A DNA stretch of 64,000 nt from an uncultured Methanosarcinales archaeon (GTDB taxonomy: Archaea > Nanobdellota > Nanobdellia > Woesearchaeales > GW2011-AR9): the NCBI GenBank assembly GCA_964434885.1, contig CAYSWQ010000003.1, positions 6,882 through 70,881 of the forward strand. Direction: 5' to 3'. Within the stretch, counting starts at the first letter, position 1, and every line of letters starts with the position of its first letter. A model generated the notes under the pieces. That model was not told the origin of the DNA. It saw nothing but the letters and a program-made list of their open reading frames with translations, and made no database searches. Positions 2,646-20,484 of this stretch are shown piece by piece. The translations under genes and the position numbers were made by a program.

Positions 2646-2953
2646 TCTGTTTCACCTCCAATATTTTTATCATTTGAGAATAAATTTCTAAAACCAACAA
2701 CTTCGGGTGGGTCAAGTCTTTCGATTTTAGTTTCAGTTTTTAGTTTGGTTTTTGTTCTTCTGAAACGTCTTGGTTTTAACTTGTAGTAAATCAAGGCAAT
2801 TGACAAGTAAATAAATAATACAAAAACCCCTAACAACATCATGACAACTAAGCCTAACTTGTTCATCCCTAATTCATAAGAAAAAATAAGACTTAAAGGT
2901 AAATAAATACAAAGAAATGCCAAACTAACAATTAATTCTTTTGCTGCGTTCAT
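2642..2953 (-). CDS. Small 2-TM membrane protein with basic cytoplasmic tail (VirB3-like size and topology)
   Basis: Two N-terminal TM helices, then KPRRFRRTKTKLK. Start overlaps the methyltransferase stop (ATGA). Confidence 0.4.
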   Translation of the reverse strand: MNAAKELIVSLAFLCIYLPLSLIFSYELGMNKLGLVVMMLLGVFVLFIYLSIALIYYKLKPRRFRRTKTKLKTETKIERLDPPEVVGFRNLFSNDKNIGGETE

Positions 2954-4446: not shown

Positions 4447-4474
4447 AGTGGACAAGTGGACAAGTGCAGGTAGA
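4447..4474 (+). promoter_or_regulatory. Tandem direct-repeat promoter element GTGGACAA-GTGGACAA-GTGCAGGTAG immediately upstream of a TATA-like box (hef promoter)
   Basis: Sequence aaGTGGACAAGTGGACAAGTGCAGGTAGaatatataaata. Near-identical elements at 12782-12808 and 14578-14606, each abutting a TATA-like box. Confidence 0.5.
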
Positions 4475-4514
4475 ATATATAAATAAGTTAATTCTCGATA
4501 AGATAACTATAACA

Positions 4515-6713
4515 ATGTTAAAAGATTTTACTCCTCGTTTGTATCAGCAAACTATTTTAGGAACGATTGTGAGAAAGAACACCTTAGTAGTTTTACCAAC
4601 TGGAATGGGAAAAACAGCATTAGCTTTTATGTTAGCGGCGCAAAGATTGAGGCAATATCCAAATTCTAAAATATTGTTGTTGGCCCCAACTAAACCTCTT
4701 TGTGAACAGCACAGGAATAGTTTTCGAAAATACTTAGATATTGAAGAAGAAAGAATTGTTTTATTTACTGGACATGTTAAGCCGGAAAAGAGAGCAGAAT
4801 TATGGAAAACTGCCCAAGTGATTATTAGTACTCCCCAAGGTTTGGAAAATGACATCATCAATAGAAAAATTGATTTGAGAGAAGTTAGTTTGTTAACTTT
4901 AGATGAGATCCATCATGCTACAGGAGATTATAGTTATGTGTGGGTTGCTAAACAATATGTTAAAATGGCTAAATTTCCACGGGTTTTGGGTTTAACTGCT
5001 TCTCCTGGTTCAGATATGGAAAAGATTAAAGAAGTTTGTCAAAACACATATATTGAAGAAGTTGAAGTTAGAACCAATAAAGACCCAGATGTTAAACCTT
5101 ATGTTCAAGAAGTGAAACAAGAATGGGTCAAAGTGAATTTACCTCCAGAGTTTGTGGAGATTAAGAAATTTTTAGAGGATTGTTATAAAAGTAAATTGAA
5201 ACAAATTCTAGAGTTGGGTTATTGTAATCATATAGGTTTAAATAAAATTGAGTTGATTAAATTACAAGGTCATTTGCAAGGAAGAATTTCTAGAGGAGAA
5301 AGAGAAATGCCAATTTTAAAATCGGTTTCTTTGTTAGCGGAAGCATTGAAAGTTCAGCACGGTTTAGAATTGTTAGAAACCCAAGGAGTAAAAGCAGTGT
5401 TTTCTTACTTAAATCGGTTACAAAAAGAATCTTATTCTACTAAAGTGAAAGCAGTTCGTAATTTAGCTAGAGATGTTAATTTTAAATCGGCCTTGGTTTT
5501 GGTCAATAGTTTGGTTGAGAAAAAGATTGAACATCCCAAATTAACTAAATTAAAAGAACTAGTTAGAGAAGAAGTGAAGAGAGATGATGCACGAATAATT
5601 ATCTTTACTCAATTTAGGGATTCTGGTTCTGAGATTGTGGAAGAATTAAATAAAATTGAAAATGTGATGGCCCAATTATTTGTGGGACAAAGTAAAAAAA
5701 GTGGTACTGGATTAAGTCAAAAAAAACAAAAAGAAGTTCTGGATGATTTTCGAGAAGGGCAGTTTAATATCTTGGTGGCTACTTCAGTAGGAGAAGAAGG
5801 CCTAGATGTCCCTTCAGTAGATTTAGTAATTTTTCATGAACCAGTTCCTAGTGCGATTAGAACTATTCAAAGAGCAGGAAGAACTGGTCGTTTAGAAAAA
5901 GGAAGAGTTATGGTCTTGATGACTAAAGGAACAAGAGATGAAGGTTATCGTTGGAGTGCTTTTCATAAAGAAAAAAGAATGTATGGTGATTTGGAAAAGA
6001 TCAAAAAAGGTTTTTCTTTGAAAGAAAACCCAATAGTTACTTTAGAAAAATTCATCCCAAAAGAACAAGAAGTTTTGATTTTAGCAGACCATCGAGAAAA
6101 AGGAGGAAGAGTAGTCAAGGAATTAATTGATTTGGGAATTAATTTAGAATTAAAACAATTAGAAAGTGCAGACTATATCTTAAGTGGTCGGGTGGGGGTA
6201 GAGAAAAAAGGAATTTATGATTTTGTATCTTCAATAGTTGATGGCAGATTGTTGGAACAAGTTAAATATTTAAAACAAAATTTTGAAAAATGTTTGGTGG
6301 TCGTGGAAGGAGAAGAAGATATTTATTCTGTCCGGAAAGTTCATGCTAATGCAATACGTGGGATGTTGGCGGCAATTACTATTGGATATGGGGTTCCTGT
6401 TTTATATACTAAAAATGCTAAAGATACAGCCGGCCTTTTATCTGTTATTGCTAAAAGAGAGCAGGACAAAGGCAGAGATTATTCTTTGCATGAACGTAAA
6501 CCAATTTCTTTGAAAGAACAGCAAGAATTTATTGTTTCTGCTTTTCCTGGAATTGGTTTGAACACAGCAAAGATTTTGTTGGAACATTTTGGAAGTGTTG
6601 AAAAATTAGTTGGTTCTTCTTTAGCAGAATTACGAGAAATAGAAGGGATTGGAGAAAAGATTTCTTGTAAAATAAAAGAAGTTTTAGAAGCAAAATATGT
6701 TGTTGATAAATAA
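4515..6713 (+). CDS. hef: Hef: helicase-associated endonuclease for fork-structured DNA (SF2 helicase + XPF/ERCC4 nuclease + tandem HhH)
   Basis: LPTGMGKT (Walker A). DEIHHATG (DExH). HEPVPSAIRTIQRAGRTGR (motif VI). C-terminal ILADHREKGG (ERCC4 nuclease). FPGIGLNTAKILLEHFGS...IEGIGEKI (HhH2). ORF opens at 4464 but the conserved start is probably MLKDFTPRLYQ at 4515. Confidence 0.85.
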   Translation: MLKDFTPRLYQQTILGTIVRKNTLVVLPTGMGKTALAFMLAAQRLRQYPNSKILLLAPTKPLCEQHRNSFRKYLDIEEERIVLFTGHVKPEKRAELWKTAQVIISTPQGLENDIINRKIDLREVSLLTLDEIHHATGDYSYVWVAKQYVKMAKFPRVLGLTASPGSDMEKIKEVCQNTYIEEVEVRTNKDPDVKPYVQEVKQEWVKVNLPPEFVEIKKFLEDCYKSKLKQILELGYCNHIGLNKIELIKLQGHLQGRISRGEREMPILKSVSLLAEALKVQHGLELLETQGVKAVFSYLNRLQKESYSTKVKAVRNLARDVNFKSALVLVNSLVEKKIEHPKLTKLKELVREEVKRDDARIIIFTQFRDSGSEIVEELNKIENVMAQLFVGQSKKSGTGLSQKKQKEVLDDFREGQFNILVATSVGEEGLDVPSVDLVIFHEPVPSAIRTIQRAGRTGRLEKGRVMVLMTKGTRDEGYRWSAFHKEKRMYGDLEKIKKGFSLKENPIVTLEKFIPKEQEVLILADHREKGGRVVKELIDLGINLELKQLESADYILSGRVGVEKKGIYDFVSSIVDGRLLEQVKYLKQNFEKCLVVVEGEEDIYSVRKVHANAIRGMLAAITIGYGVPVLYTKNAKDTAGLLSVIAKREQDKGRDYSLHERKPISLKEQQEFIVSAFPGIGLNTAKILLEHFGSVEKLVGSSLAELREIEGIGEKISCKIKEVLEAKYVVDK

Positions 6714-8600: not shown

Positions 8601-9332
8601 TTATTGTTTATATATCTTTTTGCTCAATTTTTGATAACAATAGTCTGTTATCCACCTAAGGTTTTCAATATCTTCTTTGTTATAATCAATAAGTAATTCT
8701 AGCCATTCTTTATCTCCAGAAGCATGGAACGCTTTCCATAAATCAACAGGGTTGCCTTTTAATTTGGGGTGTCGAGAGATAGAAAGTTTTTTTTCCACTT
8801 CTTTTAATCCTCCAATCAAATTTAAATTAATACAAAGGGGTTTTAGATCCAAATGGGGCATAGGGAAAGTTAAATTTAATTGTTTTTTTAATTTTGGTAA
8901 GTCAAAGGCGCTGCCATTAAAAGTAATTACAAGTTTGTAATGGGCGAGTTGTTTTTGAAGAATGTTGGTGGTTAAATTTGCTCCATGAACAAAGGTTTTA
9001 GTTTGGTATTCATCTGCTAAACCAACTAAAATTACTTTTCCTTTCGAATCCACTTCAATATCCACATAACAAGTTTCTTCTTTAAAATAATTGTATAATC
9101 TCCAAGTTTCTTTTTGGGGTAAATTTTTTTTGAAATAAGAAGTGTTTTCATTTAAAAGTTGGATTTGGGCTTCTTTAATCTGGCGATCGTAATGGTATTT
9201 TCTTAATTGGGAAATACCTTTAATTTTTTTTGTTTGGAGAAAATTTTGCCAGTCTTTGATACCTTGTTGCCAAAGACTTTGCTCTGTTTTAGTTGATATT
9301 TTGTCTAAAAAAATAAAAGAGTTTCTAATCAT
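8601..9332 (-). CDS. DEDDy-type 3'-5' exonuclease (RNase H-fold, DnaQ/PolB-exo-like)
   Basis: Exo I YVDIEVD. Exo II ITFNGSAFDLPKL. Exo III YNKEDIENL. Confidence 0.5.
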   Translation of the reverse strand: MIRNSFIFLDKISTKTEQSLWQQGIKDWQNFLQTKKIKGISQLRKYHYDRQIKEAQIQLLNENTSYFKKNLPQKETWRLYNYFKEETCYVDIEVDSKGKVILVGLADEYQTKTFVHGANLTTNILQKQLAHYKLVITFNGSAFDLPKLKKQLNLTFPMPHLDLKPLCINLNLIGGLKEVEKKLSISRHPKLKGNPVDLWKAFHASGDKEWLELLIDYNKEDIENLRWITDYCYQKLSKKIYKQ

Positions 9333-10402
9333 AAATCAATCGAGAGTTTCTTGTTTTTTAAATCTATCTTTTTTATCTTTTTTTCTTTTTGTAGTGTTGT
9401 TTTAATTTCGTTCCAATTTTTGGTTTTCTTTAATTTCTTGGTAATTTCAAGTAGTTTATTCAATGGTTGATATTTTTCATAAATTAATTCAGCTTTTTGA
9501 TTGTTTTTTTCGATTAGGTTTTTTTGTTTTTTAACAGATTTTTCCTGTTCTTCAATAATCTTTTTTTGAGAAATAATCTTTTTTTCGTAAGGTGATTTTT
9601 TTTGATTAAAATCAATTGTTTCTAATGCTTCTGAATATGTTTTAGTTGTTTTGGTTGGTTGTTGATTAGTCAAAGAAAAAGGAGTAATCTGTTCTAGATA
9701 AATATTTCCGGTTGGTTTTTTTAGTTTTTTTATTAATAAATTGATTGTTTCAATAATTTGTTTTATTTCTTTGGGCAATGTTTCTTGAGAAGTTTTGTTT
9801 TTATCAATTTGACTTAAAATGCAAACTTCTTCTGCATAAAGACCACCTAAACCCAATTCAATAGCTAACGTAGCAGCTAGATTTTTCCTAGTGCTTTGTT
9901 TTAATATTTCGGTAAGTTGATTTGATGTGAGGTTCTTCCAGTTGTTTGTTGAAGGAGGAGGAACATATTTTTCTTTTGGACGGATAAAACGGTCTTTGAA
10001 TCTTTGTTGATGGACAGCAGCTAAAATGATATTGTCTTTGTTAGTGAGAATTAGATTTCCTGGAGCAAATAGTTCGATGATTAAATTAAATTTTTCTTCT
10101 TTTTGAAGTTCTAAAATTAGAATCCGCTCTGAATCTTTTTGTTTGATATTTTTAATAAAAGAGTTGTTTAGATATTTTCTTAATTGTAAACAAAAACCAC
10201 TTGGTCTTAATGCTGATTTTTTTTCTGAAGCCAAATTTATTATTTTTCCCGGGATAATACGGACTATTTTTTTCTCTTTTTTGTGTAATTGAAAAAAGAA
10301 TTCTTCTTCTACTTGGTAAATTTGTGAAATTTTTCCATCTACTAAAAATTGTAATTCTTGTGTTAATGCAGTCAATTCCAAGGAAGCAATTGATTTTTTC
10401 AT
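9329..10402 (-). CDS. NFACT-N domain protein (FbpA/Rqc2/NEMF N-terminal homolog), apparently lacking the C-terminal NFACT-R/DUF814 part
   Basis: N-terminus MKKSIASLELTALTQELQFLVDGKISQIYQ...LHKK matches the NFACT-N consensus. Lys/Glu-rich coiled coil at the C-terminus. 357 aa against about 600 for full-length archaeal homologs. Confidence 0.4.
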   Translation of the reverse strand: MKKSIASLELTALTQELQFLVDGKISQIYQVEEEFFFQLHKKEKKIVRIIPGKIINLASEKKSALRPSGFCLQLRKYLNNSFIKNIKQKDSERILILELQKEEKFNLIIELFAPGNLILTNKDNIILAAVHQQRFKDRFIRPKEKYVPPPSTNNWKNLTSNQLTEILKQSTRKNLAATLAIELGLGGLYAEEVCILSQIDKNKTSQETLPKEIKQIIETINLLIKKLKKPTGNIYLEQITPFSLTNQQPTKTTKTYSEALETIDFNQKKSPYEKKIISQKKIIEEQEKSVKKQKNLIEKNNQKAELIYEKYQPLNKLLEITKKLKKTKNWNEIKTTLQKEKKIKKIDLKNKKLSIDL

Positions 10403-10529: not shown

Positions 10530-11561
10530 ATGAGAGTTTTAGCTAGCAATAAAGAAGAACCAAAATTAGATTTGATAGATAAAAAAATATTGTATTTGTT
10601 ATCTGTTAATGCCCGGTTTTCTTATTCTACAATTGCTAAACATGTTAAATTGTCTCGAGAAGCAGTTAAACAAAGAATCAACAAATTACTAAAAAAAGAG
10701 GTTTTATTGGGTTTTCAAACTGCCATCAATCACCCAATATTAGATTATAATTCCTATCATGTTTTTTTGCAATTAAATAAACTTAACAAAAAACGAGAAG
10801 AAGAAATTGTGAAAAAATTGGGGGCCGATTCGGATGTTAATGCTTTATTAGAATACGAAGGCAAATACAATTTTGAGGTTTCTTACTTGTTAAAAGATAT
10901 TCGGGAGTTGAATACTAAATTAAAAGAATTATCTGGCCAAAGTATCAAAGACTATAATTTTTTTATTTTGTTAGATACTGTTGCTGCCCAAACTTACTCT
11001 CAATGTTTGCATAAATTAGATTTAGATGTAAAGAACATTCGACATGATGGCTCTTTTTTTGGTGATCTGAATAAAAAAAGAACTGGAAAGATAAATTTGG
11101 ATGAAAATGATAAACAATTATTGAAATTTATTAGTGAAGATGCAAGAATTAGTATGACTGAACTGGCAACTAAATTAAAATTGAGTGTAGATTCTGTAAT
11201 CTATAGAATTAAAAAATTAATTAGTTGTGGAGTAATTGTTGGTTTTCGCCCAATAATTAATTATGCTAATTTGGGATATAGTGTGTATTGTTTGTTTTTT
11301 AAATTTAAAAATTTAAATAAATCAAATGAAGACAAATTTAATTATTTCTTTAAAACTCATCCGAATGTTTTGTGGTCTGCTAATTGCCTAGGTCCATTTA
11401 ATAATATTTCTTATTTGGTTGTGAAAGATAGTTTTGAATATCACAACGTGATTAATGAAATTAGAGAGAATTTTTTTGAAATTATTGATAATTATGAAAG
11501 CTTATTGGCTTTTGCTGAATATAAGTATGGTTTCTTTCCAGGTGGGTTGTTGGAAAATTAA
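10530..11561 (+). CDS. Transcriptional regulator with two tandem Lrp/AsnC-type HTH modules
   Basis: DKKILYLLSVNARFSYSTIAKHVKLSREAVKQRINKLLKKEVLLGF and DKQLLKFISEDARISMTELATKLKLSVDSVIYRIKKLISCGVIVGF. Confidence 0.6.
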   Translation: MRVLASNKEEPKLDLIDKKILYLLSVNARFSYSTIAKHVKLSREAVKQRINKLLKKEVLLGFQTAINHPILDYNSYHVFLQLNKLNKKREEEIVKKLGADSDVNALLEYEGKYNFEVSYLLKDIRELNTKLKELSGQSIKDYNFFILLDTVAAQTYSQCLHKLDLDVKNIRHDGSFFGDLNKKRTGKINLDENDKQLLKFISEDARISMTELATKLKLSVDSVIYRIKKLISCGVIVGFRPIINYANLGYSVYCLFFKFKNLNKSNEDKFNYFFKTHPNVLWSANCLGPFNNISYLVVKDSFEYHNVINEIRENFFEIIDNYESLLAFAEYKYGFFPGGLLEN

Positions 11562-11947
11562 TAGTATTTTTCTTGCCAAATTTCAGGCAATAGTTGTTTT
11601 AGTGTGGTTTCTTTATCTTCGCTAAGAATTACTTTGGTGTTTAGATTTTCTTTATTTATTTCGTAAATCATTTCTCGGCATCTCCCACAAGGAGGCAAAA
11701 TTTTACCTTCGTTAGAAATAGCCACAATCTTATTTATCTTATATTCTTTGTTAGTCACCATATTAGCAATAGCACTATGTTCAGCACAAAAACCAATTCC
11801 ACAACAAGCAACAATACTAACTCCCAAGTAAATATTTCCTTTATCTGTAATTAAAGCACAACTAACATCTCCTATTGAAACATTTTCAGAAACTTTATTT
11901 AAATGAGATATTTCTTTTGCTTTTTTAATTAATTCTGTTGGTTCCAT
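11558..11947 (-). CDS. cdd: Cytidine/deoxycytidylate deaminase family protein
   Basis: Zinc-binding motifs CAEHSAI (H/C-A-E) and PCGRCREM (PCxxC). 129 aa. Confidence 0.75.
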   Translation of the reverse strand: MEPTELIKKAKEISHLNKVSENVSIGDVSCALITDKGNIYLGVSIVACCGIGFCAEHSAIANMVTNKEYKINKIVAISNEGKILPPCGRCREMIYEINKENLNTKVILSEDKETTLKQLLPEIWQEKYY

Positions 11948-11960
11948 TTAAAAATAATTA

Positions 11961-12049
11961 GCGCGGAGGGAGACTCGAACTCCCGATCAGAGGGTTGCAG
12001 CCTCTTGCCGTGGCCGCTTGTGGGCTTTAGCCGCTTGGCCATCCGCGCT
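11961..12049 (-). tRNA. tRNA-Cys (anticodon GCA), 89 nt, with an extra 15-17 nt insertion in the D-arm region (probable non-canonical intron)
   Basis: Reverse complement GCGCGGA...TCCGCGC acceptor stem. T-arm GGGAG TTCGAGT CTCCC. Anticodon arm AGAGG CTGCAAC CCTCT with U33, GCA, A37. The region between acceptor and anticodon stems is 36 nt instead of about 19 and contains a duplicated CAAGCGGC. Confidence 0.6.
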
Positions 12050-12742
12050 TGAGTTTAATGCGTTAATTAATCTTTGTTGCTTTATTGGATGTTCAAACCC
12101 AACATATTTAAAAAAGTTTCTGAAAGAAGATTTTTCTATATCAATATGAAGACACCTACTCCTACTACCATCTTTCCTGGTATTTAATTTAAAATGACGT
12201 ACTGGTGAAGACTTAACTCCAAACTTAGCCAACATAGATCTTAGTTGTTCAAAATATCTAATTCCAGAATCAATTAATAAACTATTCTTTGCCATTCTAA
12301 AACTTATTCTCCAACGTAATTTCTTTCCCCTAGTGATGTGTATGCTTCCTTCGTTATCAAATAATCCCCTCAAGTAAGAGCTTTGTATTTCTGGTGTGCC
12401 ATTGAAAACCCACTCGGGAACTACAAACGAATTATTGGTTTTATTTCCTACTGGAGTTCCTATCTCTTTCAAAAAAACACAGATTGGTTTTGAAATAATA
12501 AATAATTTATATCGTCTTGTGGAGTTTGGGCTTTTTTTGGAAGTGCTATCATCTACATAAATTCTTCCTTCTATTTCAAATAAATCGAAAAAACGTTGTT
12601 TGACTGCTTTTATTTCTTCTAAATTCTTTGAATAAAAAGAAGCAAGATATCTCCATTTATCAATTTGTAAATGACCATCTCCCGTTAAATCAGCTACAGT
12701 GCGAGCTAGTTTTGGATTTTTCTTTAAGTGTTGCATTTTCAA
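11987..12742 (-). CDS. Double-motif LAGLIDADG homing-endonuclease-like protein, free-standing
   Basis: LARTVADLTGDGHLQ and LRGLFDNEGSIHI motifs about 100 aa apart, Lys/Arg-rich. The last roughly 20 codons overlap the 5' part of tRNA-Cys. Confidence 0.6.
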   Translation of the reverse strand: MKMQHLKKNPKLARTVADLTGDGHLQIDKWRYLASFYSKNLEEIKAVKQRFFDLFEIEGRIYVDDSTSKKSPNSTRRYKLFIISKPICVFLKEIGTPVGNKTNNSFVVPEWVFNGTPEIQSSYLRGLFDNEGSIHITRGKKLRWRISFRMAKNSLLIDSGIRYFEQLRSMLAKFGVKSSPVRHFKLNTRKDGSRSRCLHIDIEKSSFRNFFKYVGFEHPIKQQRLINALNSSADGQAAKAHKRPRQEAATL

Positions 12743-12781
12743 TTACTACTTTAAATGCAACAAGTAAGAAAATATAAAAAT

Positions 12782-12808
12782 CCTACCTGGACTTGTCCAC
12801 TTGTCCAG
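12782..12808 (-). promoter_or_regulatory. Second copy of the tandem GTGGACAA promoter element (minus strand: CTGGACAAGTGGACAAGTCCAGGTAGG), abutting a TATA-like box upstream of the LAGLIDADG gene
   Basis: Followed on the minus strand by atttttatatttt, then the ATG at 12742 about 28 bp further on. Confidence 0.5.
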
Positions 12809-12839
12809 TTGATTTCAAAAAAATTATTTAGAAATAATA

Positions 12840-12979
12840 TGGACCTGAAGGGATTCGAACCCTCGATCTACAGCTTAGAAGGCTCTAGCGGGACAATTTG
12901 TCCTGTCGCCATATTTGACCCACGTTTGGGGCAAGCCCGGGAACTATGTTCCCCGTGTCCAGGCTAGGCTACAGGTCCA
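12840..12979 (-). tRNA. Intron-containing tRNA (about 140 nt; at least two insertions including a hairpin in the D-loop; isotype unresolved)
   Basis: Reverse complement GGACCTG...CAGGTCC-A acceptor. T-arm GAGGG TTCGAAT CCCTT. D-stem GCCT/GGGC interrupted by GGGGAACATAGTTCCC hairpin. About 45 extra nt between the D and T arms. Confidence 0.55.
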
Positions 12980-13046
12980 TATAGAATTGTTAGAAATAAA
13001 GGTTATTTATAAAATTTAGTATTAAAAAAGAAATAAAAGAAAAAAA

Positions 13047-14168
13047 TTAATTAACATCTTTTAAACCCGCAGTTTCTACAAAAAAGCAAACTTCCCCGTC
13101 TGGTAAGGCAGGTGCATCTATTAACTTTGCCACTCTCGATCCTTTCTTACCTTTTCTCAAGTAAATTCGGAAAGTAGAGGCATGAGCCACAATATGTCCT
13201 CCAATAGAAGCAGTAGGATCTCCAAAGAACTGATCTGGTTTGGCCATTACTTGATTGGTAACATAAACACAGATGTTGTGAGTGTTAGCAACTTTAGCCA
13301 AGGCATGCATATGGCGATTTAATTTCTGCTGTCTTTCTGCTAACGTTCCTCGACCAATATATTCTGCTCGAAAATGAGAAGTTAAAGAATCGACTACTAC
13401 CAACATTACTTTTTTGTTTTGTTCGTTGATTAAGCTTTCTACTTTTTCAGCTAGCAACATTTGGTGGTCAGAGTTATATGCCCTAGCAACCATTATTCTG
13501 CTTAATGCATCTTCTGGATTCAAACCTGCTCCTTCTGCTAATTGGGTGATTCTTTCTGGTCGAAATGTGTTTTCTGTATCAATGTAAACCACAGTGGCAT
13601 CAGGATGAACATTTAATGTATTAACTGCAAGGATATGGCCTACTTGGGTTTTTCCAGAACCGAATTCACCAAAACATTCGGTGATTGCTCCAGTTTCAAA
13701 TCCACCTCCCATTAATGTGTTGAAGTTCTCTGAACCGGTGCTTATTTTAGATACTTGTTCTCTTTTCTTCAAAATATCCATTCCTGATTCAAAACCCATT
13801 TTCATGCTATCTCTTGCAGCATTAATCATCTTTCTAGCGACTGATTCAGAAACACCAGTGGTTTCAATCAATTCTCCAATTGTGGCAACTGCCATGGACA
13901 TCATATCTCGATAACCCGCATTGGCTAGTTTTTCGGCAGTGGCGGCCCCCACTCCTGGAAGGTCCTGGAGAGTGGGTTCTTTTTCAATCTCTTTATTGGG
14001 AGTTAGTTCTAAATTTTTTGTTGTTTTTTCTTCAGTGGTTGGTTTAGGTGTTGTTTCTGGTGTTGATTCTGATACTTGTTCTAATGTTGTTTCTGTGTTT
14101 TCAGTATTTGGTTCTGAATTTTGTTCTAAAATTTCAGTGGGTTCTTCAATTATTTTTTCTTTGGTCAT
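13047..14168 (-). CDS. radA: DNA repair and recombination protein RadA
   Basis: N-terminal HhH LQDLPGVGAATAEKLANAGY. Walker A GEFGSGKTQ. RecA-fold core. C-terminal SRVAKLIDAPALPDGE. Unusual roughly 60-aa T/E/P-rich N-terminal extension. Confidence 0.9.
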   Translation of the reverse strand: MTKEKIIEEPTEILEQNSEPNTENTETTLEQVSESTPETTPKPTTEEKTTKNLELTPNKEIEKEPTLQDLPGVGAATAEKLANAGYRDMMSMAVATIGELIETTGVSESVARKMINAARDSMKMGFESGMDILKKREQVSKISTGSENFNTLMGGGFETGAITECFGEFGSGKTQVGHILAVNTLNVHPDATVVYIDTENTFRPERITQLAEGAGLNPEDALSRIMVARAYNSDHQMLLAEKVESLINEQNKKVMLVVVDSLTSHFRAEYIGRGTLAERQQKLNRHMHALAKVANTHNICVYVTNQVMAKPDQFFGDPTASIGGHIVAHASTFRIYLRKGKKGSRVAKLIDAPALPDGEVCFFVETAGLKDVN

Positions 14169-14179
14169 CTTGCTTTCCT

Positions 14180-14467
14180 CTATTGTGCTTTGAATAGTTC
14201 TTGTTCTTTAAGAACTAAATATTCATAAGCTTTCTGTAACACAATACTTGCTTTTGGCAAGTCATTTATTCTTAAAGAATTGGTGTTTTGCCATTCGCCT
14301 TTTTCATCTTTGTAACAACGATCCAGACTTATGGTTCGATATTCGACTGCTTCTCCGGTTTTGTTTTGGCCTTTGTTAGACCAAATAGTGGCCGAAACTG
14401 ATCCGGCACGATACTTTTTTTCAGGTGTGTTACCTGTACTTTGGTTTTGGGTATTCATTGATACCAC
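14180..14467 (-). CDS. PC4/Sub1-like (YdbC-family) ssDNA-binding protein
   Basis: YRAGSVSATIWSNKGQNKTGEAVEYRTISLDRCYKDEKGEWQNTNSLRINDLPKASIVLQKAYEYL fits the PC4 C-terminal-domain pattern (conserved W, GE..EYR.ISL.R.Y.D..G.W). Stop is 12 bp from the radA start. Confidence 0.45.
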   Translation of the reverse strand: MVSMNTQNQSTGNTPEKKYRAGSVSATIWSNKGQNKTGEAVEYRTISLDRCYKDEKGEWQNTNSLRINDLPKASIVLQKAYEYLVLKEQELFKAQ

Positions 14468-14577
14468 CTCGTTTTGCTATTCGCTTTTTATTTCAAACCA
14501 CAACCAATTTTGATTGCAGCGAGGGGTGGCCAATTGCTTGGCTACGTTTAGTTGGAGTGAGAGGTAGTTTAAATAGT

Positions 14578-14606
14578 CTACCTGGAGTTGTCCACTTGTC
14601 CACTAC
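14578..14606 (-). promoter_or_regulatory. Third copy of the tandem GTGGACAA promoter element (minus: GTAGTGGACAAGTGGACAACTCCAGGTAG) abutting TATA-like tatttaaa, about 110 bp upstream of the PC4-like/radA operon
   Basis: Same element and orientation relative to the downstream gene as at 4447 and 12782. Confidence 0.5.
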
Positions 14607-14716
14607 TCTTTTTTTTGGGCCAGTTTTGGGCTTAATTTTCGTTTTGGAGACTGTTTTGTTGTTTTTTTTAAGTAGACAAAATTATTTTTTAAAGTGTCTT
14701 CTATTAAATTTTTCTG

Positions 14717-15178
14717 TTAAATAATAGTTATTGTTTTGATTATCAAAAAAGTAAAGATCAAGGTTTGAATTAATTTTTCTCCCCAACCATTAGTTTTGAA
14801 AAATCCTTTAATTTTGAAAGAAAATGGGTACATGATTGGAAGGCCTTGTTTAGTTAAAGAATCGGCAAGTAAGTGAGATGTAATTCCAATAAAAATTCCC
14901 CAAGCATAATATTCATTGAATACATATTTGGTTGTTAATGTAGTGAGGATTAAAAAAAATAAAGAGTGGAAGAATCCTCGGTGTTTAGAGAAAAAAGAAG
15001 TTATTTGGCCAATTAAACCTGTCCATTGAGTTGCTTTGCTGTGTTTTTCATCAATATCTGGTAGCAAGCTCCCTAACAAAACAAAAATTAGGAGCAGAAT
15101 TTCATTTCCTCCATTTAGGAATGGTTCAAAAAGGAAAAAGGAAAAAAGTCCTATTAAGATGTGGGTTGGAAATAGCAT
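14717..15178 (-). CDS. YdjM/DUF457-like membrane-bound metal-dependent hydrolase
   Basis: MLFPTHILIG...HRGFFHSLFF...TSHLLADSLT motifs. 4 TM helices. Confidence 0.4.
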   Translation of the reverse strand: MLFPTHILIGLFSFFLFEPFLNGGNEILLLIFVLLGSLLPDIDEKHSKATQWTGLIGQITSFFSKHRGFFHSLFFLILTTLTTKYVFNEYYAWGIFIGITSHLLADSLTKQGLPIMYPFSFKIKGFFKTNGWGEKLIQTLIFTFLIIKTITII

Positions 15179-16161
15179 TAATTTACTTTGTTGAGTTCAG
15201 TTGTGGGGTTGGCTTTTTCTACAATTTGGGCAACAAATTCCAACCGATCAAACATCTCATTGCGATTAACCCTACCAATAACTTTGAATTGTTCTCCCAA
15301 AAGTTCGGTTTTTAGATCTTCAAATAATCCCATGTTTTCTTTAAATTTGACCATTTCTTCGTCAGATTTTCCTAACAAATTATTAGTCTGGTTCTTCCAG
15401 AAAACTCCCCGGATAGTTCCAGTTCCATCATCTAAAACTAAATTAAGAACATAGGAGCTAGCAGCTTCTACTTTACTATGTTCATTACAATAGAAACCAT
15501 CTTCTCGTTCATCAACTCTTTTACTACATTCTGGACAAACATTAAAATATCGGGGATCAAAGACTTGAACCACAGTACCCATTAATTCCACTCCCAAATC
15601 TCCTTCTTTTAAGATATCAATTTTTTTTCTTTCACGGAGTGTGGATTTTTGTTTGACAGTACCAATTGTTTCTCCTTCTGGATTGATTGAGACACTGCTA
15701 CGGTCATTTAAATGAAGTTCTACTTGGTTGAAGTTATTTTCTTTAGCATAACCAGAAGAGATTAGAACTACATCTTCTTCTTTTAATTCATTCATAATAT
15801 CTGCTTGGTCATTCCAACAAGCAATTCGAATAGTTCCTGAATCATCACCAATCACAAAAGCACCTATTTTCCCTTGACGTCCATTCTTATCGAATTCTCG
15901 GATTGGAAATTTTTGGGTTACTTTTCCTAGAACTTCAACTTGTTTCATACCCGCATAAATTTTATTGATTTTAAAACGCCCTTCTTCTTCGACAATTTTA
16001 ATTCCCATTTCATTGGCAATTATGTGGGCAGCGCCTTCTTCAGAAATCAAACCAGAGAGTTCATTAATTTTGGCTTTAATTTTTTCATCTAAATCTTCGG
16101 CAGATAAATTAGATCCTTGTTGAATTTTTTCTTTTAATTCTGCGATAGGGACTTTAAACAT
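15178..16161 (-). CDS. rpa: Replication protein A-like ssDNA-binding protein (OB folds + C4 zinc ribbon)
   Basis: OB-fold pattern KIYAGMKQVEVLGKVTQ...AFVIGDDSGTIRIACWN. Zinc ribbon CPECSKRVDEREDGFYCNEH. Second OB GTIRGVFWKNQ. Confidence 0.65.
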   Translation of the reverse strand: MFKVPIAELKEKIQQGSNLSAEDLDEKIKAKINELSGLISEEGAAHIIANEMGIKIVEEEGRFKINKIYAGMKQVEVLGKVTQKFPIREFDKNGRQGKIGAFVIGDDSGTIRIACWNDQADIMNELKEEDVVLISSGYAKENNFNQVELHLNDRSSVSINPEGETIGTVKQKSTLRERKKIDILKEGDLGVELMGTVVQVFDPRYFNVCPECSKRVDEREDGFYCNEHSKVEAASSYVLNLVLDDGTGTIRGVFWKNQTNNLLGKSDEEMVKFKENMGLFEDLKTELLGEQFKVIGRVNRNEMFDRLEFVAQIVEKANPTTELNKVN

Positions 16162-16272
16162 TTTTTACACCTCTAACTCATTTTTTGGAAAGAAGATTTA
16201 TTTATAAGAATTTGTATTGTTTAGTATTATTGTTTGGTGAGGTTGTTGAGTAGTATTGTTGAATGGTGTTAT

Positions 16273-17073
16273 TTAAGTTGATTGGGTGGCAAAATCTAAA
16301 GCAAAATAATATTTTATGGGCATTAGTTGTTTATTTTTGTAAGCTGAATTTTTGCTTTCTACACAAAAAGCCACTTTTCTAGCTTCGGAATAAAACTTGT
16401 TGGTGCATTCTGAAAATTTCCATTTTGTTAATTTTTTATTTTTAATGTGGTTTTTGATACAGGTTTCTAAGTTTGATTTTTTATTACAAGCAGCCACTAA
16501 ATTGTTGGCAATTTTTCTTAATAAGTTGTATTCTTCTTGTAAATCAAAACCGAGATCAATCTCGAAATCAAGATCATAAGTATAAAGGGCATAATATTTA
16601 TCTGTTTTTGTAGATTTAATTGTTTTTTGATTTGCTTTTCCAAGAATAAAATTCTTTTCTAATTTAAGTGTATTATAATTCTTTTTGGGGCTTTTTTTAT
16701 TTACTCTTTCAGTTAAATCAGTTATAAAATCTTTTGAAAGTGAGGGAGCACAAGAAGCAAAATCTTTTTTCTTATTCCAAACAACATAATGTCTTGTTTG
16801 TGGGCCAATTTTGCCGCAAGGAATTTTATTTATAAATCCTGCGTTTGTGGCTAGTCGATGAATTGAATCTCCAGCTGCTTGTTTAACTAAAAAGTCTGAA
16901 TTGATTAAATCTTGTTCGGCTAAAAAATAATAATTATTAAGAAAATCTATCTGCCAAGTTCCTTTTGGTTCTAAGTTTAAATTAGTTGTTTGGCTGAAAT
17001 AAAAAAATACACCCAAAGCTATAAAAAATCCAAAAACAATGATCCAATGAAAAATTAATGCTTTTTTGTTCAT
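16273..17073 (-). CDS. Pilin-like/secreted protein with class III-type signal (MNKKA + hydrophobic helix)
   Basis: MNKKALIFHWIIVFGFFIALGVFF N-terminus. Last gene of the coupled minus-strand block. Confidence 0.4.
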   Translation of the reverse strand: MNKKALIFHWIIVFGFFIALGVFFYFSQTTNLNLEPKGTWQIDFLNNYYFLAEQDLINSDFLVKQAAGDSIHRLATNAGFINKIPCGKIGPQTRHYVVWNKKKDFASCAPSLSKDFITDLTERVNKKSPKKNYNTLKLEKNFILGKANQKTIKSTKTDKYYALYTYDLDFEIDLGFDLQEEYNLLRKIANNLVAACNKKSNLETCIKNHIKNKKLTKWKFSECTNKFYSEARKVAFCVESKNSAYKNKQLMPIKYYFALDFATQST

Positions 17074-17076
17074 TTT

Positions 17077-17580
17077 TTAAGTTATCTTAAACCCGGTGGC
17101 TGCTTTGTACCGGGCTTGGCCCTCGCTTGTTTTTTCCTCACCTACAATTGTAACAGAAATGGGTTGTTTTTTTCCAATGATCTCTGCACTGGCATAATTT
17201 GATGTTAACCCTCCCCCAACAACAATTGGATAGTACAATTTTTCACCAGGGTATTTGATGATAATGCCTTTAAAAAAAGGGTCTTTTGAATCTAAAAATA
17301 TTTTCTTTACATTTTTTTCTAAACTTGGTTTCAAAGAAGGATTGTTTTCAGTAGCAACGATTAATTCTGTCAAGGTTAATCCATTTTCAGTCGGAGCTCT
17401 TAAATAATTAAACAAAACTTGTTTGGATCTAATTTCATCTAAATTAGAGATTGATGTCAAGTCATTTTTTTTTAAACTCCCATTCAAAATAATACTTGTA
17501 AAAAAGAAAAAAAATACTAAGAGTATAATAATAGTTAACAAATCAATTGCGTCTCCAAATTGGGCTTTCTTATTTCTCAT
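17077..17580 (-). CDS. Archaeal type IV pilin-like protein (class III signal peptide)
   Basis: MRNKKAQ|FGDAIDLLTIIILLVFFFF. 167 aa. Confidence 0.45.
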   Translation of the reverse strand: MRNKKAQFGDAIDLLTIIILLVFFFFFTSIILNGSLKKNDLTSISNLDEIRSKQVLFNYLRAPTENGLTLTELIVATENNPSLKPSLEKNVKKIFLDSKDPFFKGIIIKYPGEKLYYPIVVGGGLTSNYASAEIIGKKQPISVTIVGEEKTSEGQARYKAATGFKIT

Positions 17581-18029
17581 GTTTTTACTTGAACTCCAAC
17601 TTCCAACAAGGCGGGCTGGATTTGGTCTCCTTTTTTTACTAAAATATTTTTGTAGATAGTATAATCTCGGTTATTGAGATAATATTTAGTTGTGGTTATT
17701 TCTTGATTAATATTTGTTAATTTCAAACCAAAATTTGGTTCTTTTTTATCATCCACGGGATAACATTCCCTTAATTTTGTTTCAGTAAATTTTTTGGGAT
17801 CTATAATTCCAGGATAAGTTCGATCTCCTTTTTGATAGGCTAAACAATCAGGAGAATTGATGAATCGATCAATAATGAATGTTGTTTTTATTTGATCGGG
17901 AACGTCGACTACATTTTTTTGAAAATTAAAAATTTGTATAGCGAAGCCGATAATAGCAATTGTAAATACAGTCGATAGAATCATCCAAAAGATAGTTTTT
18001 CTTAGTTCATATTGGGCTTTTTTGTTCAT
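17577..18029 (-). CDS. Archaeal type IV pilin-like protein
   Basis: MNKKAQ|YELRKTIFWMILSTVFTIAIIGFAI. ATGA overlap with neighbour. Confidence 0.45.
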   Translation of the reverse strand: MNKKAQYELRKTIFWMILSTVFTIAIIGFAIQIFNFQKNVVDVPDQIKTTFIIDRFINSPDCLAYQKGDRTYPGIIDPKKFTETKLRECYPVDDKKEPNFGLKLTNINQEITTTKYYLNNRDYTIYKNILVKKGDQIQPALLEVGVQVKT

Positions 18030-18439
18030 TGGTTAACCTCTTTGTCTTTGCATTTACGAATAGTTATGGTTTTGTCTTTTTTTTCTAAACAAAGGGTTTT
18101 TGGTTTTTCTATTGCGCTGTTGGCAAAATAACCCGAAGGTAAATAAAAAGATTTTTGGTTCCTTAGTTTTTCAGATTCCCCTGGTTCAAATACTGAAATT
18201 GTACCTTGTCTCATAACAAAATTGTATTTGCTGATATTATAAGGGTATTGTACTACTGCATCTCCTGGAACACTTACTAAAACATCAATCATCATTTTGA
18301 TATCTTGAGCAGTTCTAATTTTGCTATTATTTTCTGAGGTCGCTAAATTCTTAGCATAGCTAACCAAAATAAAAATAAGAGCCAAAACAGCCAAAACTTC
18401 AAAAATCATTACTAAGATACTGGCAGCTTTTTTGTTCAT
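18026..18439 (-). CDS. Archaeal type IV pilin-like protein
   Basis: MNKKAAS|ILVMIFEVLAVLALIFILV. Confidence 0.45.
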   Translation of the reverse strand: MNKKAASILVMIFEVLAVLALIFILVSYAKNLATSENNSKIRTAQDIKMMIDVLVSVPGDAVVQYPYNISKYNFVMRQGTISVFEPGESEKLRNQKSFYLPSGYFANSAIEKPKTLCLEKKDKTITIRKCKDKEVNQ

Positions 18440-18454
18440 TTTGATAAATCTTAA

Positions 18455-19267
18455 TTATTGATTAATTAACCCATATACAGGTAATTGTTTGCCTTTTACC
18501 ATTTTGTAGGTGACTTTAAGTTCATTACATTTTGGATCCAAACAAATAAAAATTTTATTTTCTTTATTTAGTAGATAAATTGCATTTCTACGATAACCTA
18601 AATTAAAGGAAAAAGGAAAATTGTTTAAAGGCAATAGTTGGTGTCCGGCAGAATCTCTTCCGAGGAAAAATCCTCCTTTTAAGGTATATTCTTCTTTGTT
18701 TGTTCCTTCTATTGCCAACCAATCAGTAAAAGGAATAGTTCTCATTTTGGTGATATCTACTCGGAGTTCTTTTTGGGTTCCAAGATTTATTTTTCCGATT
18801 CCTTTGCATTTAGATTTTGTGTATTTGATAATTGGCTTCCAATTTTTTTGTTTATCATAGAATGAAGATACTGATTTGAAAAGACAGATACAGGCCTGTT
18901 CTTTACAATCTTTTGCTTCAGGATTAGACCAAGAAACACACCCTTCTTTTTGATTGGGTAAAGTTAAACTCTTAGCACAAGCTTCTACTTTAGCTGCCCC
19001 TTGACTAAAACCCACAATTGTTGTTTTGTCATCTAAAATTAAATTGGTTATTTCTGTTTGATCTTTGTTTTTTTCAAAAGTTATGATTTTTTTAACAAAT
19101 TTATCAAAACTGTCTTCGGCTTGAGAAGGACCAATAAATTTGGCTACGAACATAATGGTAGGAACAAACACCATGAAAGTTAAAACTATCATTACTAGTG
19201 CTTTGAGGACTAATTGTGCTTTTTTCATTGAATTAAATTTATGTTTGTTTACTCTTTTTAGTATCAC
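18455..19267 (-). CDS. Pilin-like protein (probable start at internal MKKAQ, position 19228)
   Basis: MKKAQLVLKALVMIVLTFMVFV. Cys-containing globular domain. Confidence 0.4.
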   Translation of the reverse strand: MILKRVNKHKFNSMKKAQLVLKALVMIVLTFMVFVPTIMFVAKFIGPSQAEDSFDKFVKKIITFEKNKDQTEITNLILDDKTTIVGFSQGAAKVEACAKSLTLPNQKEGCVSWSNPEAKDCKEQACICLFKSVSSFYDKQKNWKPIIKYTKSKCKGIGKINLGTQKELRVDITKMRTIPFTDWLAIEGTNKEEYTLKGGFFLGRDSAGHQLLPLNNFPFSFNLGYRRNAIYLLNKENKIFICLDPKCNELKVTYKMVKGKQLPVYGLINQ

Positions 19268-19592
19268 AATCTTTGTTAAGTTCGGTTACTTTTGCATCAG
19301 TAGTAGTAGTACTTGGACAACCAGGGAACTCTTTGTTTTTAGTTGTTCCTGCATCACAAGGACATTTATCAAATAAGTCACCAATATTATCATTGTCATA
19401 ATCTCCTAATGCACTAATTTTTTCTCCTAGGTTTCCATAAGCACCTTCTCCGCCTTTCTGGAACCAAATGATTACTAAAGTAACAACAACAACTGCTAAG
19501 ATTGCTAGAACCAATTGTTGCCAAGTCATGGCTTTTTTATTGAATAACATTTTATCACCATTAATTTTTTTATTTTCCTGCAATATCTCCAC
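19239..19592 (-). CDS. Pilin-like protein with thrombospondin-type-3-like Ca-binding repeat
   Basis: MLFNKKAMTWQQLVLAILAVVVVTLVII. DYDNDNIGDLFDKCPCD. Confidence 0.4.
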   Translation of the reverse strand: MEILQENKKINGDKMLFNKKAMTWQQLVLAILAVVVVTLVIIWFQKGGEGAYGNLGEKISALGDYDNDNIGDLFDKCPCDAGTTKNKEFPGCPSTTTTDAKVTELNKDCDTKKSKQT

Positions 19593-20484
19593 TAAAACAA
19601 TTTTTTTGTGCGGTTTTCAAATCACTCAAATAAATTGTGCTGGTATCTCTTTCTGTGTAGAGGTTTTTGTAGATATCGGCGGCGGCACTGAGAGATTGTT
19701 GGGTTGCACCAGCCGCTCCACTTCCAGCCAAATATAATCCTGGGCCAGCAAAAATACCACTCTTCAACATAATTACTCCTCCGGCTGCTACGGCCAGGTT
19801 TCCGAAAGCCCGACCTCCTTTTTTGAGAATTGTTTCCCAAGAAACTTTTTTGTTCTTAGCACCAAAACTAATCCCATAAGCATGGTTAGGTTTAATATCT
19901 GCTTGAATAACGACTCTACCTGGACCTCCGTGGCTTTGAAAATATTCTATGTATTTTTTGCCTGCCTTATCATAAGGATTATTAAGAAGATATTTATAAA
20001 AATCATTAAAAGAAATTTGGTCTCCTTTCTCAAAACCATCGGTATTTTTAATAAAAAGAGAATAACATAAAAAACAATCATTTTTTTTACTAAATTCAGG
20101 TAAAACTGTTTTGGTTGCCCCTTCTTCAACTGCTTCTGATGCTAAGTCTTTCTTAAGTATTTCTTCGTATCGACCTTCCCCAAACATCCACCAACATTGA
20201 GCCATGCTATCTGCGATCTGTTTTTTTACTTTTTCTTTATCTTCTTTGATATCTTGATCACAAGTTTTACATAATAAAGGAGAAGTGTGGATGTCTTGGT
20301 TATCTATTTGAATAGTGGTAGTGGTAGCTCTTAAGTTGACACTCCATTGACAAATCTCTTCTGCTTTTTTACAATCATCAGTAGTACTAAAATTAATAAC
20401 TATGGGGGCCAAAACTAGAAAAGAAACAATGGTAATGATTGCCCCAACTAAAAAAGAGGAGGCTTCTACTGCTCGTTTATTCAT
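19570..20484 (-). CDS. Pilin-like/secreted protein (304 aa)
   Basis: MNKRAVEASSFLVGAIITIVSFLVLAPIV N-terminus. First gene of the 20.5-16.3 kb block. Confidence 0.4.
   Translation of the reverse strand: MNKRAVEASSFLVGAIITIVSFLVLAPIVINFSTTDDCKKAEEICQWSVNLRATTTTIQIDNQDIHTSPLLCKTCDQDIKEDKEKVKKQIADSMAQCWWMFGEGRYEEILKKDLASEAVEEGATKTVLPEFSKKNDCFLCYSLFIKNTDGFEKGDQISFNDFYKYLLNNPYDKAGKKYIEYFQSHGGPGRVVIQADIKPNHAYGISFGAKNKKVSWETILKKGGRAFGNLAVAAGGVIMLKSGIFAGPGLYLAGSGAAGATQQSLSAAADIYKNLYTERDTSTIYLSDLKTAQKNCFSGDIAGK

Follow-up and report, generated by a model that had tools for sequence, protein, structure and literature searches.

In the bacterial SOS response, one operator, the LexA box, is common to recA, ssb, dinD, ydjM, small-peptide genes and prophage genes, with the recombinase gene as its anchor member. 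A non-LexA operator, the radiation/desiccation response motif (RDRM) of the Deinococcus RDRM/DdrO-IrrE system, is common to recA, ssb and damage genes; it is a 17-bp palindrome, and the XRE-family repressor of this system is cleaved by a metalloprotease. On the level of translation, phage T4 gp32 regulates itself through an operator that sequesters the Shine-Dalgarno (SD) sequence. Archaea, to our knowledge, have no LexA, and the damage motif of Sulfolobus, whose response to damage has been studied best among archaea, is a short hexamer. The DNA-damage regulators of the Sulfolobales are Orc1-2 and TFB3 (PMC6061795, PMC6101594), and repair and homologous recombination genes of Sulfolobus are reported not to be UV-induced (PMC2246294). 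Here, we analyze a stretch of 64,000 nucleotides (nt) from an uncultured, tiny-celled archaeon of the DPANN/Woesearchaeota type (GenBank assembly GCA_964434885.1, contig CAYSWQ010000003.1, positions 6,882 to 70,881; "the window" below, whose own numbering is used throughout), in which the recombinase gene radA directly follows the gene of a small unannotated protein, P95. We consider it rather probable that this P95-radA operon stands under two layers of control, one acting on transcription and one on translation, and that it is one member of a lineage-wide recombination/DNA-damage regulon. The system has the look of an archaeal equivalent to the SOS response of bacteria, one not described before.

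The likeness to the bacterial system lies in a common operator with the recombinase gene as anchor member, and in a gene set that includes a true DinD orthologue, antirepressor-type genes and integrases. Unlike there, the operator belongs to an archaeal TATA promoter and is built from direct repeats in tandem and a third box adjoining the TATA box instead of a palindromic LexA box; YdjM and the single-stranded DNA (ssDNA)-binding protein RPA adjoin the operon but sit outside the motif regulon, and radA would have an additional translational layer. With the Sulfolobales, the locus shares an archaeal network defined by a promoter motif, damage-responsive there and presumably here. It differs in belonging to DPANN archaea, in a putative regulon around radA, hef, radC and dinD, and in a composite element of ~35 nt. 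As in Deinococcus, a non-LexA operator is common to the recombinase and damage genes, but tandem repeats take the place of the 17-bp palindrome. Along the same line, the leader of the operon resembles those of T4 gene 32 and of ribosomal-protein genes, since it is predicted to occlude the SD sequence beside a conserved single-stranded A-rich tract and the first gene probably encodes a nucleic-acid binder. It differs from other SD-sequestering leaders by its architecture, a hairpin P1 plus a three-way junction of P0, P2 and P3, by having no Rfam match, and by its place in an archaeal recombinase operon. Leader candidates of archaea are given in PMC7247131.

These findings bear on how archaea regulate radA. 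New here are a candidate SOS-like regulon of DPANN archaea, a leader of a recombinase operon predicted to sequester its SD sequence, and an unannotated protein family tied to radA; our literature search found no description of the regulon, the leader or the P95 protein. They provide three handles: a long operator that defines a repair/recombination gene set including a true DinD, a structured leader RNA predicted to gate translation of the recombinase operon, and a large family genetically inseparable from radA, a candidate recombination mediator or regulator. All three are widely conserved in an uncultivated lineage (~400 species-level genomes) and amenable to in vitro study without culturing the organism. 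The sequence-level architecture, which we report with high confidence, comprises the following features:

14566-14602, minus strand: P95-radA promoter, with the operator at 14578-14602 and the TATA box TATTTAAA at 14566-14573
14459-14543, minus strand: structured 5' leader RNA, recognized by covariation, covariance model and minimum free energy fold
14529-14542, minus strand: hairpin P1 of the leader
14520-14527, minus strand: anti-SD of the leader, which pairs with the SD sequence at 14464-14470 to form helix P0
14498-14519, minus strand: helix P2 of the leader
14486-14495, minus strand: tract UGAAAUAAAA of the leader
14180-14458, minus strand: P95, 92 amino acids, a conserved family, first gene of the operon
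13047-14168, minus strand: radA (Rad51 domain PF08423, 272.6 bits, residues 135-371; HHH_5, residues 66-120)
4515-6713, plus strand: Hef helicase-nuclease, 732 amino acids (DEAD, ResIII, Helicase_C, ERCC4, HHH_2, HHH_5)
4449-4473, plus strand: operator copy of Hef, exact match to the 25-mer described below, TATA box ATATATAAATA at ~4476-4486
12783-12807, minus strand: operator copy of a LAGLIDADG gene, exact match to the 25-mer, TATA box TTTTTATATTTT downstream

RadA shows the Rad51 ATPase core and N-terminal helix-hairpin-helix (HhH) of a RadA/Rad51 recombinase, and Hef combines a superfamily 2 helicase, an ERCC4 nuclease and an HhH2 domain. Two start codons deserve mention. Hef more likely starts at ATG 4515, downstream of its TATA box, than at GTG 4464 of the mechanical open reading frame (ORF), which overlaps the promoter. 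P95 most likely starts at ATG 14458 (92 rather than 95 amino acids), behind the SD sequence GAGGTGG at 14464-14470.

For the comparative study, GTDB species genomes were searched with an alignment of P95 relatives (A1). Relatives of P95 are encoded in 403 of these genomes. The best 80 loci, each including up to 10 kb either side of P95, served for a tblastn comparison with all window proteins. The window, with a low GC content of ~31%, is archaeal sequence; it recurs identically on two ENA metagenome contigs of the same species (L001 and L002), and all close relatives carry the labels Woesearchaeota or Nanoarchaeota, i.e., DPANN. RadA follows P95 within 600 nt in 69 of the 72 loci with sufficient flank. 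In the window, radA starts 11 nt past the P95 stop codon, and the two genes are predicted to be co-transcribed as an operon.

The promoter of this operon carries the motif on which the regulon is built. The window contains precisely three exact copies of the 25-mer TGGACAAGTGGACAAnTnCAGGTAG, located at the operator positions listed above, compared to no occurrence in 100 shuffles. Its copies precede Hef, the LAGLIDADG gene and P95-radA and end 1-3 nt before the TATA box. A promoter motif common to Hef and radA, as the original prediction had it, is thus borne out, and it extends to the LAGLIDADG gene. The window operator is composed of two tandem GTGGACAA repeats followed by CAGGTAG. In relatives it takes the form CCACTsssC-CACTGGACA-n4-CGGmTAG, more fully (G)CCACTsssC-CACTGG(A/T)CA-AsnnCGGmTrG, and the TATA box follows the start of the proximal repeat at a fixed distance of 21-22 nt in ~72 related loci. 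In about 80 species the P95-radA promoter carries an equivalent motif, with or without a LAGLIDADG gene nearby. A first scan by regular expression was too strict (73 sites) and was replaced by a position weight matrix built from 72 P95 promoters and applied to both strands with a threshold of 12 bits. It yielded 96 matches of at least 12 bits in 81 sources (1.14 Mb), versus a single one in shuffled copies of 40 sources. A miniature inverted-repeat transposable element (MITE)-like repeat was also considered and ruled out, as the position of the motif is locked to the TATA box and the motif is conserved at this one promoter in ~80 species.

Additional copies of CACTGGACA lie ~100-150 nt upstream of the P95 promoter in many loci (e.g., L004, L006, L013, L023, L027, L033, L046), frequently in inverted orientation (TTTGTCCAGTGG) or forming another tandem pair. 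They may represent a distal operator, acting by looping, or the promoter of a divergent gene.

Away from P95 promoters, matches to the matrix precede a RadC/JAB gene, a Xer-type tyrosine recombinase, Bro-N proteins and LAGLIDADG genes. The gene set became broader in metagenomes, where JGI contigs were independently scanned for one common 19-mer variant of the motif, CCACTCCCGCACNGGACAA, which was found in at least 120 stretches. All metagenome counts given here and below refer to the matches listed. A TATA box stands at the right distance in 93 of them and an ORF follows in 105: P95 (19), a 45-amino-acid peptide (14), Bro-N/RhuM (13), Xer-type recombinase (8), RadC (7), KilA-N (6), LAGLIDADG (5), DinD (5), ORF6N (3) and Hef (1). 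A few unrelated chance matches in high-GC contigs were also among them. Pfam confirms RhuM, KilA-N, ORF6N, Bro-N and LAGLIDADG_3 among the motif-linked ORFs, and the DinD group corresponds to the NCBIfam equivalog NF008573, "DNA damage-inducible protein D" (357 bits, cut-off 242). In E. coli, dinD and ydjM are LexA-regulated according to a table in PMC6590174.

Most of the non-P95 ORFs start 61-65 nt past the motif start, about where transcription should begin, and these genes are therefore probably leaderless. P95 itself starts 130-170 nt past the motif in most of the 19 cases. A cis element is thus shared upstream of several repair and damage genes, as in an SOS system. Judged by its genes, the motif-linked set is SOS-like. 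It contains the recombinase and a nuclease-helicase of fork repair, together with RadC, DinD, site-specific recombinases, DNA binders of the antirepressor type and selfish nucleases. This makes a regulon for repair or recombination plausible, and it would presumably respond to DNA damage.

After P95, the gene found most often under the regulon promoter (14 of 105) encodes the conserved peptide of 41-45 amino acids, M..MVDLST.TI.RLF..QVQELT.RT....EDTFDYQLSGGWIQ, ~70-85 nt after the motif (L087, L089, L096, L127, L129, L138, L149 and others). It revealed no match in Pfam, NCBIfam or PHROG.

Among the motif genes, which are otherwise mostly leaderless, only P95-radA has this structured leader, ~85 nt in length. 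The sequence from TATA box to AUG is conserved across loci in a fixed order: hairpin P1, CCUC(G/A)C, the variable P2, (U)UUGAAAUAAAA, P3, AAGAGGUG and the AUG. P3 is a mini-hairpin of only 2-3 bp with a GNRA-type loop (GC-GAAA-GC, CC-GAAA-GG or GG-GAAA-CC), whereas UGAAAUAAAA, 10 nt in length and single-stranded, is invariant or nearly so across ~80 species. In the predicted structure, P0 (anti-SD CCUC with SD GAGG), P2 and P3 form a three-way junction that holds UGAAAUAAAA. The unconstrained minimum free energy fold of the window leader equals this consensus (P1, P0, P2 and P3) with the SD sequence fully paired (-26.1 kcal/mol, z -2.69).

On a plain MAFFT alignment of whole leaders, RNAalifold recovered P1 alone (5 pairs, 4 with compensatory changes), because the variable P2 was misaligned; trimming and the choice of leaders with uniform geometry solved the problem. 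An automated anti-SD search gave spurious distant helices and its restricted version a high control background, so that column-wise pair counts were used instead. Alignment A5, made by MAFFT from 30 trimmed leaders of uniform geometry and not fitted to a structure, pairs 85.4% of cells under the structure P0+P2+P3. Its covariation score is 0.458. Shuffles give 0.197, with none out of 500 attaining the observed score, and slid controls give at most 0.133; compensatory changes are present in all 8 pairs of P2 and both pairs of P3. The covariance model R1, built from A5, yields one match per locus in 79 of the 80 loci, always directly upstream of P95. It scores 60.3 bits (E 1e-10) at 14456-14529 of the window and has no other credible match in 1.14 Mb. 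In alignment A6 (84 rows, fitted to R1), 92.7% of cells pair and 14 of the 15 pairs show compensatory changes, among them 4 of the 5 pairs of P0 with the variants CCUU:AAGG, CUCC:GGAG and ACCC:GGGU. Outside model building, a leader follows ~77 nt after the 19-mer in 14 metagenome loci. No Rfam family matches the leader: the best match in the region, at 12 bits, is noise, and in the window only tRNA passes the threshold. The covarying secondary structure thus includes the SD sequence. We regard the leader as a new and well-supported candidate for a cis-regulatory RNA, which in its default state is predicted to hide the ribosome-binding site of the operon. That UGAAAUAAAA and the GNRA-type loop stay fixed while the helices drift indicates a surface to which some protein or ligand binds specifically.

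The two layers of control may operate as follows. In transcription, we infer a DNA-binding factor that acts at the composite operator abutting the TATA box at a fixed distance, with DNA damage as the presumed inducer and a direction of regulation presumed likewise. The genes under it would be Hef and the LAGLIDADG gene in the window, and in relatives dinD, radC, xer-type, Bro-N/KilA-N/ORF6N/RhuM and LAGLIDADG genes and the 45-amino-acid peptide. In translation, the helix of anti-SD and SD would keep P95, and the closely following radA, off by default. The leader would be opened by a factor or ligand at the junction; P95 or RadA itself is a possible candidate, by analogy with T4 gp32.

P95 is part of a large family, none of whose members is annotated. 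Its 209 close homologues are all unnamed and none has a Pfam domain; the full profile search yielded 3116 clusters (50% identity), and 902 of these reached E <=1e-10 or better. W29, Y52, W59, R50, R66 and K79 are among the invariant residues, and the chain of some members terminates in an acidic tail that is tipped by hydrophobic residues (EE..IIM/VVM). P95 has no sequence or profile match in PDB and no family in Pfam, NCBIfam or PHROG. The AlphaFold2 monomer (mean predicted local distance difference test 82) shows antiparallel strands at residues 14-21, 24-34, 40-53 and 59-62 and a helix at 67-93. In this model, P95 resembles PC4/Sub1/YdbC, Whirly and PUR proteins in size, in the order of four antiparallel strands and a helix, and in conserved aromatic and basic residues on the sheet. 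Unlike a true relative, however, it shows no sequence, profile or significant structural match to them, and the likeness is topological only. The original prediction had called the small ORF a PC4/Sub1-like ssDNA-binding protein. PF02229 matches neither the window P95 (E up to 0.1) nor 35 family members (E up to 10), the profile search of PDB sequences with P95 returned no PC4 chain, and hhalign with A1 assigned a probability of 0.3% against human PC4 and of 0.47% against an 11-sequence PC4 alignment of low diversity. Foldseek found no match at E <=1e-3 in PDB and BFVD; the best near-full-length PDB match is Borrelia Pur-alpha 3nm7 (template modeling score 0.26, probability 0.3-0.5). The PC4/Sub1 assignment was dropped. 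NTF2-like proteins and the CaMKII hub, the top Foldseek matches, cover the sheet only (~55 residues) and were judged meaningless.

Binding of nucleic acid by P95 is nevertheless plausible, given the conserved aromatic and basic residues, the obligatory pairing with radA and the position right behind the leader. P95 may thus be a small protein that binds nucleic acid and serves RadA as a partner or regulator. A bolder version makes P95 the switch of a LexA-independent SOS-like system of DPANN archaea. As a small dimer able to bind nucleic acid, it would repress the regulon, its own operon included, at the operator, at the UGAAAUAAAA junction or at both, and would be titrated by damage-generated ssDNA or RadA filaments. 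We consider this version unlikely; if true, the supply of recombinase would directly follow the level of ssDNA, and the homing endonucleases would be wired into the same signal.

A distant member of the family, P0270, is encoded at 1360-1710 of L203, a virus-like contig with dense small same-strand ORFs and a thymidylate synthase gene. Viruses of archaea or phages may therefore carry members of this family as well.

The surroundings of the operon were covered by the original prediction, which combined seven genes within 4.6 kb into one damage-response island: cdd, two tRNAs, a LAGLIDADG gene between them, radA with its small upstream gene, a ydjM-like gene and rpa. The listed genes are present and co-oriented on the minus strand. 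In addition to the operon, these are:

11558-11947, minus strand: cdd-like gene, cytidine deaminase family (PF00383, 35 bits; NCBIfam PRK05578, 67 bits, cut-off 74)
11960-12048, minus strand: tRNA-Cys(GCA) (Rfam RF00005, 46.7 bits), with a non-canonical intron or insert of ~17-20 nt in the D-loop
11987-12736, minus strand: LAGLIDADG nuclease gene, 249 amino acids from ATG 12736 (PF14528, 39 bits; mechanical ORF 11987-12742)
12840-12978, minus strand: tRNA-Arg(UCU), 139 nt (ARAGORN with introns allowed; Rfam, 22 bits on the 3' part)
14717-15178, minus strand: YdjM/DUF457 membrane-hydrolase-family gene (PF04307, 100.2 bits, cut-off 29, residues 1-133)
15178-16161, minus strand: RPA-type ssDNA-binding protein (OB folds PF01336 in two stretches; zinc ribbon PF08646 Rep_fac-A_C, 38.9 bits)

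The YdjM/DUF457 assignment holds, with a Pfam score far over the cut-off. NCBIfam PRK11648 reaches only 52 bits against a cut-off of 216, and the protein is thus a member of the family rather than the E. coli equivalog. RPA shows the OB folds and zinc ribbon of an archaeal RPA, with the motif CPEC...CNEH visible in the sequence; matches to the replication factor A models of NCBIfam stay under the equivalog cut-offs.

Concerning synteny, RPA is located upstream of P95 in 33 of 42 loci. YdjM is found there in 24 of 42 loci and is missing from the remaining 18; in 16 loci it comes right behind RPA. In the window, the YdjM start and RPA stop codons overlap by 1 nt, which suggests that YdjM is coupled to RPA, and 249 nt separate YdjM from P95. 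The region upstream of RPA-YdjM contains a TATA promoter of its own (~16190-16205) without the motif. Neither cdd nor the tRNAs were found as conserved neighbours in any of the 80 related loci, and neither has a motif in the window; the window LAGLIDADG ORF is near P95 in none of the 80. Hef lies near P95 in one related locus only, L009. From these counts and spacings, the conserved core is the P95-radA operon, RPA-YdjM is a separately promoted, often syntenic upstream neighbour, and cdd and the two tRNAs are bystanders. Conservation of the neighbourhood is thus real for the order RPA-(YdjM)-P95-RadA but does not include cdd, the tRNAs and the LAGLIDADG gene.

In relatives, RPA is usually preceded by a block of hypothetical genes, o304a, o137, o150 and o266. 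In the window, these four belong to six consecutive ORFs at 16273-20484 (minus strand) and keep their order upstream of RPA in many relatives. Five of the six open with archaeal class III (prepilin-like) signal peptides (MNKKAQ.., MRNKKAQFG.., MNKRAVEAS..), and none of the six has a Pfam or NCBIfam family. The cluster may encode a pilus or surface structure beside recombination genes.

The LAGLIDADG gene of the window encodes a free-standing protein with two motifs, VADLTGDGHL and LRGLFDNEGSI, which has kept the catalytic acidic residue in each and matches intein endonuclease domains. It was found only in the same-species contigs L001 and L002 and is a species-specific insertion. That it lies between two tRNA genes is correct, as both are real, the second being an intron-containing tRNA-Arg(UCU); its ORF, however, extends into the first. 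It runs 62 nt into tRNA-Cys (11987-12048, minus strand), so that the last ~20 codons and the TGA lie inside the tRNA gene and processing of the tRNA 5' end would cut the mRNA upstream of the stop codon. A TATA-like TTAATTAA is located ~20 nt before tRNA-Cys, within the LAGLIDADG ORF. The possibility that the gene is a tRNA intron was ruled out by the complete tRNA genes on both sides of the ORF.

LAGLIDADG genes of three families flank P95-radA in 7 of 81 genomes. A LAGLIDADG_3 family with a helix-turn-helix (HTH) follows ~100 nt after radA in L010, L011, L018, L043 and L065. In L060, a LAGLIDADG_2 gene (9073-9945) is inserted precisely where the promoter/operator and the leader of P95 would meet, and P95-radA must there be read through the endonuclease gene. 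In the "intronless homing" of phage T4, free-standing homing endonucleases lie beside conserved genes. The recurrence of LAGLIDADG genes beside the conserved radA is similar, but here they stand behind host regulon promoters. Most simply, free-standing homing endonucleases would settle time and again next to radA and behind regulon promoters, and be expressed when recombination is up; the window gene would be a mobile nuclease that has acquired, or landed behind, such a promoter. The expression of LAGLIDADG homing endonucleases may in this way be timed to the host recombination programme. WhiA is a LAGLIDADG-derived transcription factor that has lost the catalytic acidic residues. Some of the LAGLIDADG proteins resemble it in having a C-terminal HTH, but these residues are kept; those with the HTH may have a WhiA-like regulatory role, and one gene shows a weak LAGLIDADG_WhiA match (E 2e-4, below threshold).

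Both tRNA genes are unusual in themselves. The insert of tRNA-Cys, 20 nt in the Rfam alignment, is flanked by the repeat AAGCGGC, and because of it ARAGORN with default settings mis-calls the gene as a 91-nt tRNA-Leu(CAA). tRNA-Arg(UCU) contains ~65 nt of intervening sequence in its 5' half and was detected only with intron-tolerant settings. Enumeration of splice variants gave thousands accepted by ARAGORN, all Arg(TCT). The extra sequence forms two or three perfect small hairpins (GGGAAC-ATA-GTTCCC, GGACA-AAT-TGTCC) and thus probably represents two non-canonical introns.

How do other explanations fare against two-layered control of a P95-radA operon within a regulon? The notion that all seven genes form one damage-response island, with a PC4/Sub1-type ssDNA binder and an SOS-like YdjM, draws on their co-orientation within 4.6 kb, on the recurrent order RPA-YdjM-P95-RadA and on the LexA control of ydjM in E. 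coli, as tabulated in PMC6590174. The four-strand-plus-helix order of the P95 model, as in PC4, Whirly and PUR proteins, fits it as well, with near-full-length PDB alignments only to the PUR protein 3nm7. It conflicts with the lack of cdd, the tRNAs and the LAGLIDADG gene in 80 of 80 related loci, with YdjM missing in 18 of 42, with the separate RPA-YdjM promoter, which lacks the motif and excludes YdjM, along with the analogy to the SOS gene ydjM of bacteria, from the motif regulon, and with the failed PC4 tests. For the membership of cdd, the tRNAs and a PC4 protein this explanation is largely refuted, and as a whole we judge it improbable. What survives of a coherent damage-response module is P95-radA with unlinked genes such as Hef in a plausible repair/recombination regulon, and RPA-YdjM as a syntenic neighbour, not the whole seven-gene stretch. 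Chance juxtaposition in an ordinary compact genome would suit gene-dense DPANN archaea and the incidental cdd and tRNAs. With RadA behind P95 in 69 of 72 loci, three 25-mers against none expected and one covarying leader per locus, it is refuted for the P95-radA core and has next to no probability overall.

A stronger competitor, if a doubtful one, takes the motif as a promoter class of mobile or selfish elements, or as a lineage-specific strong promoter or variant of the B recognition element (BRE), which radA carries for unrelated reasons, e.g., import by a homing endonuclease. Bro-N, KilA-N, ORF6N, RhuM, Xer, LAGLIDADG and RadC, the majority of the non-P95 motif genes, are indeed typical mobile-element cargo, which means that the regulon could be a mobile-element or stress promoter class; the LAGLIDADG families beside P95-radA and the distant P95 relative in a virus-like contig point the same way. 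Yet the motif is present at P95-radA in essentially all ~80 species irrespective of LAGLIDADG genes and is thus ancestral to the host operon rather than imported; Hef, RadA, RadC and the bona fide DinD are repair or damage genes, and an element of ~35 nt with direct repeats is far longer than a BRE. Of similar, rather low standing is the view of the leader as passive, i.e., as an RNA thermometer, an mRNA-stability or processing structure or a constitutive attenuation. Pairing of SD and anti-SD by itself is the principle of ROSE and fourU thermometers, and P3 is tiny. Thermometers, however, rarely conserve unpaired sequence, whereas UGAAAUAAAA and the P3 loop are fixed across ~80 species.

Several further points weigh against the regulon and its two layers as we favor them. 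The evidence for damage induction is the gene content of the regulon, with the share of mobile-element cargo just described. Besides this genome, the motif was found at Hef in a single one of the metagenome contigs listed, and it is lacking in L009. A LexA-like regulator did not come up, none having been sought genome-wide. The four-pair core of P0, CCUC:GAGG, is almost invariant, such that its support consists of conservation and a handful of compensatory cases. No homology or fold match supports a function of P95. Finally, sampling covered ~10 kb each side of P95 per genome, and the metagenome scan used one 19-mer variant, with counts that refer to the matches listed.

Some observations concern the remainder of the window. 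A 343-amino-acid protein with two tandem AsnC/Lrp-type HTH modules is encoded at 10530-11561 (plus strand), convergent with cdd; it is near P95 in none of the 80 related loci and is not a conserved operon neighbour. Very long ORFs of 2049, 1779 and 1183 amino acids lie at 26746-32895 (minus strand), 35098-40437 (plus strand) and 47181-50732 (plus strand), respectively. GC skew is strongly positive from ~33 kb to 51 kb, and the segment 43001-44000, between the ORFs 42619-43266 and 44363-45565, has few long ORFs and an exceptionally low GC content of 17.6%. The gene at 2950-3879 (minus strand) encodes a C5 cytosine DNA methyltransferase. It is not preceded by the motif in the window, while one metagenome ORF behind the regulon promoter matches this methylase by blastp.

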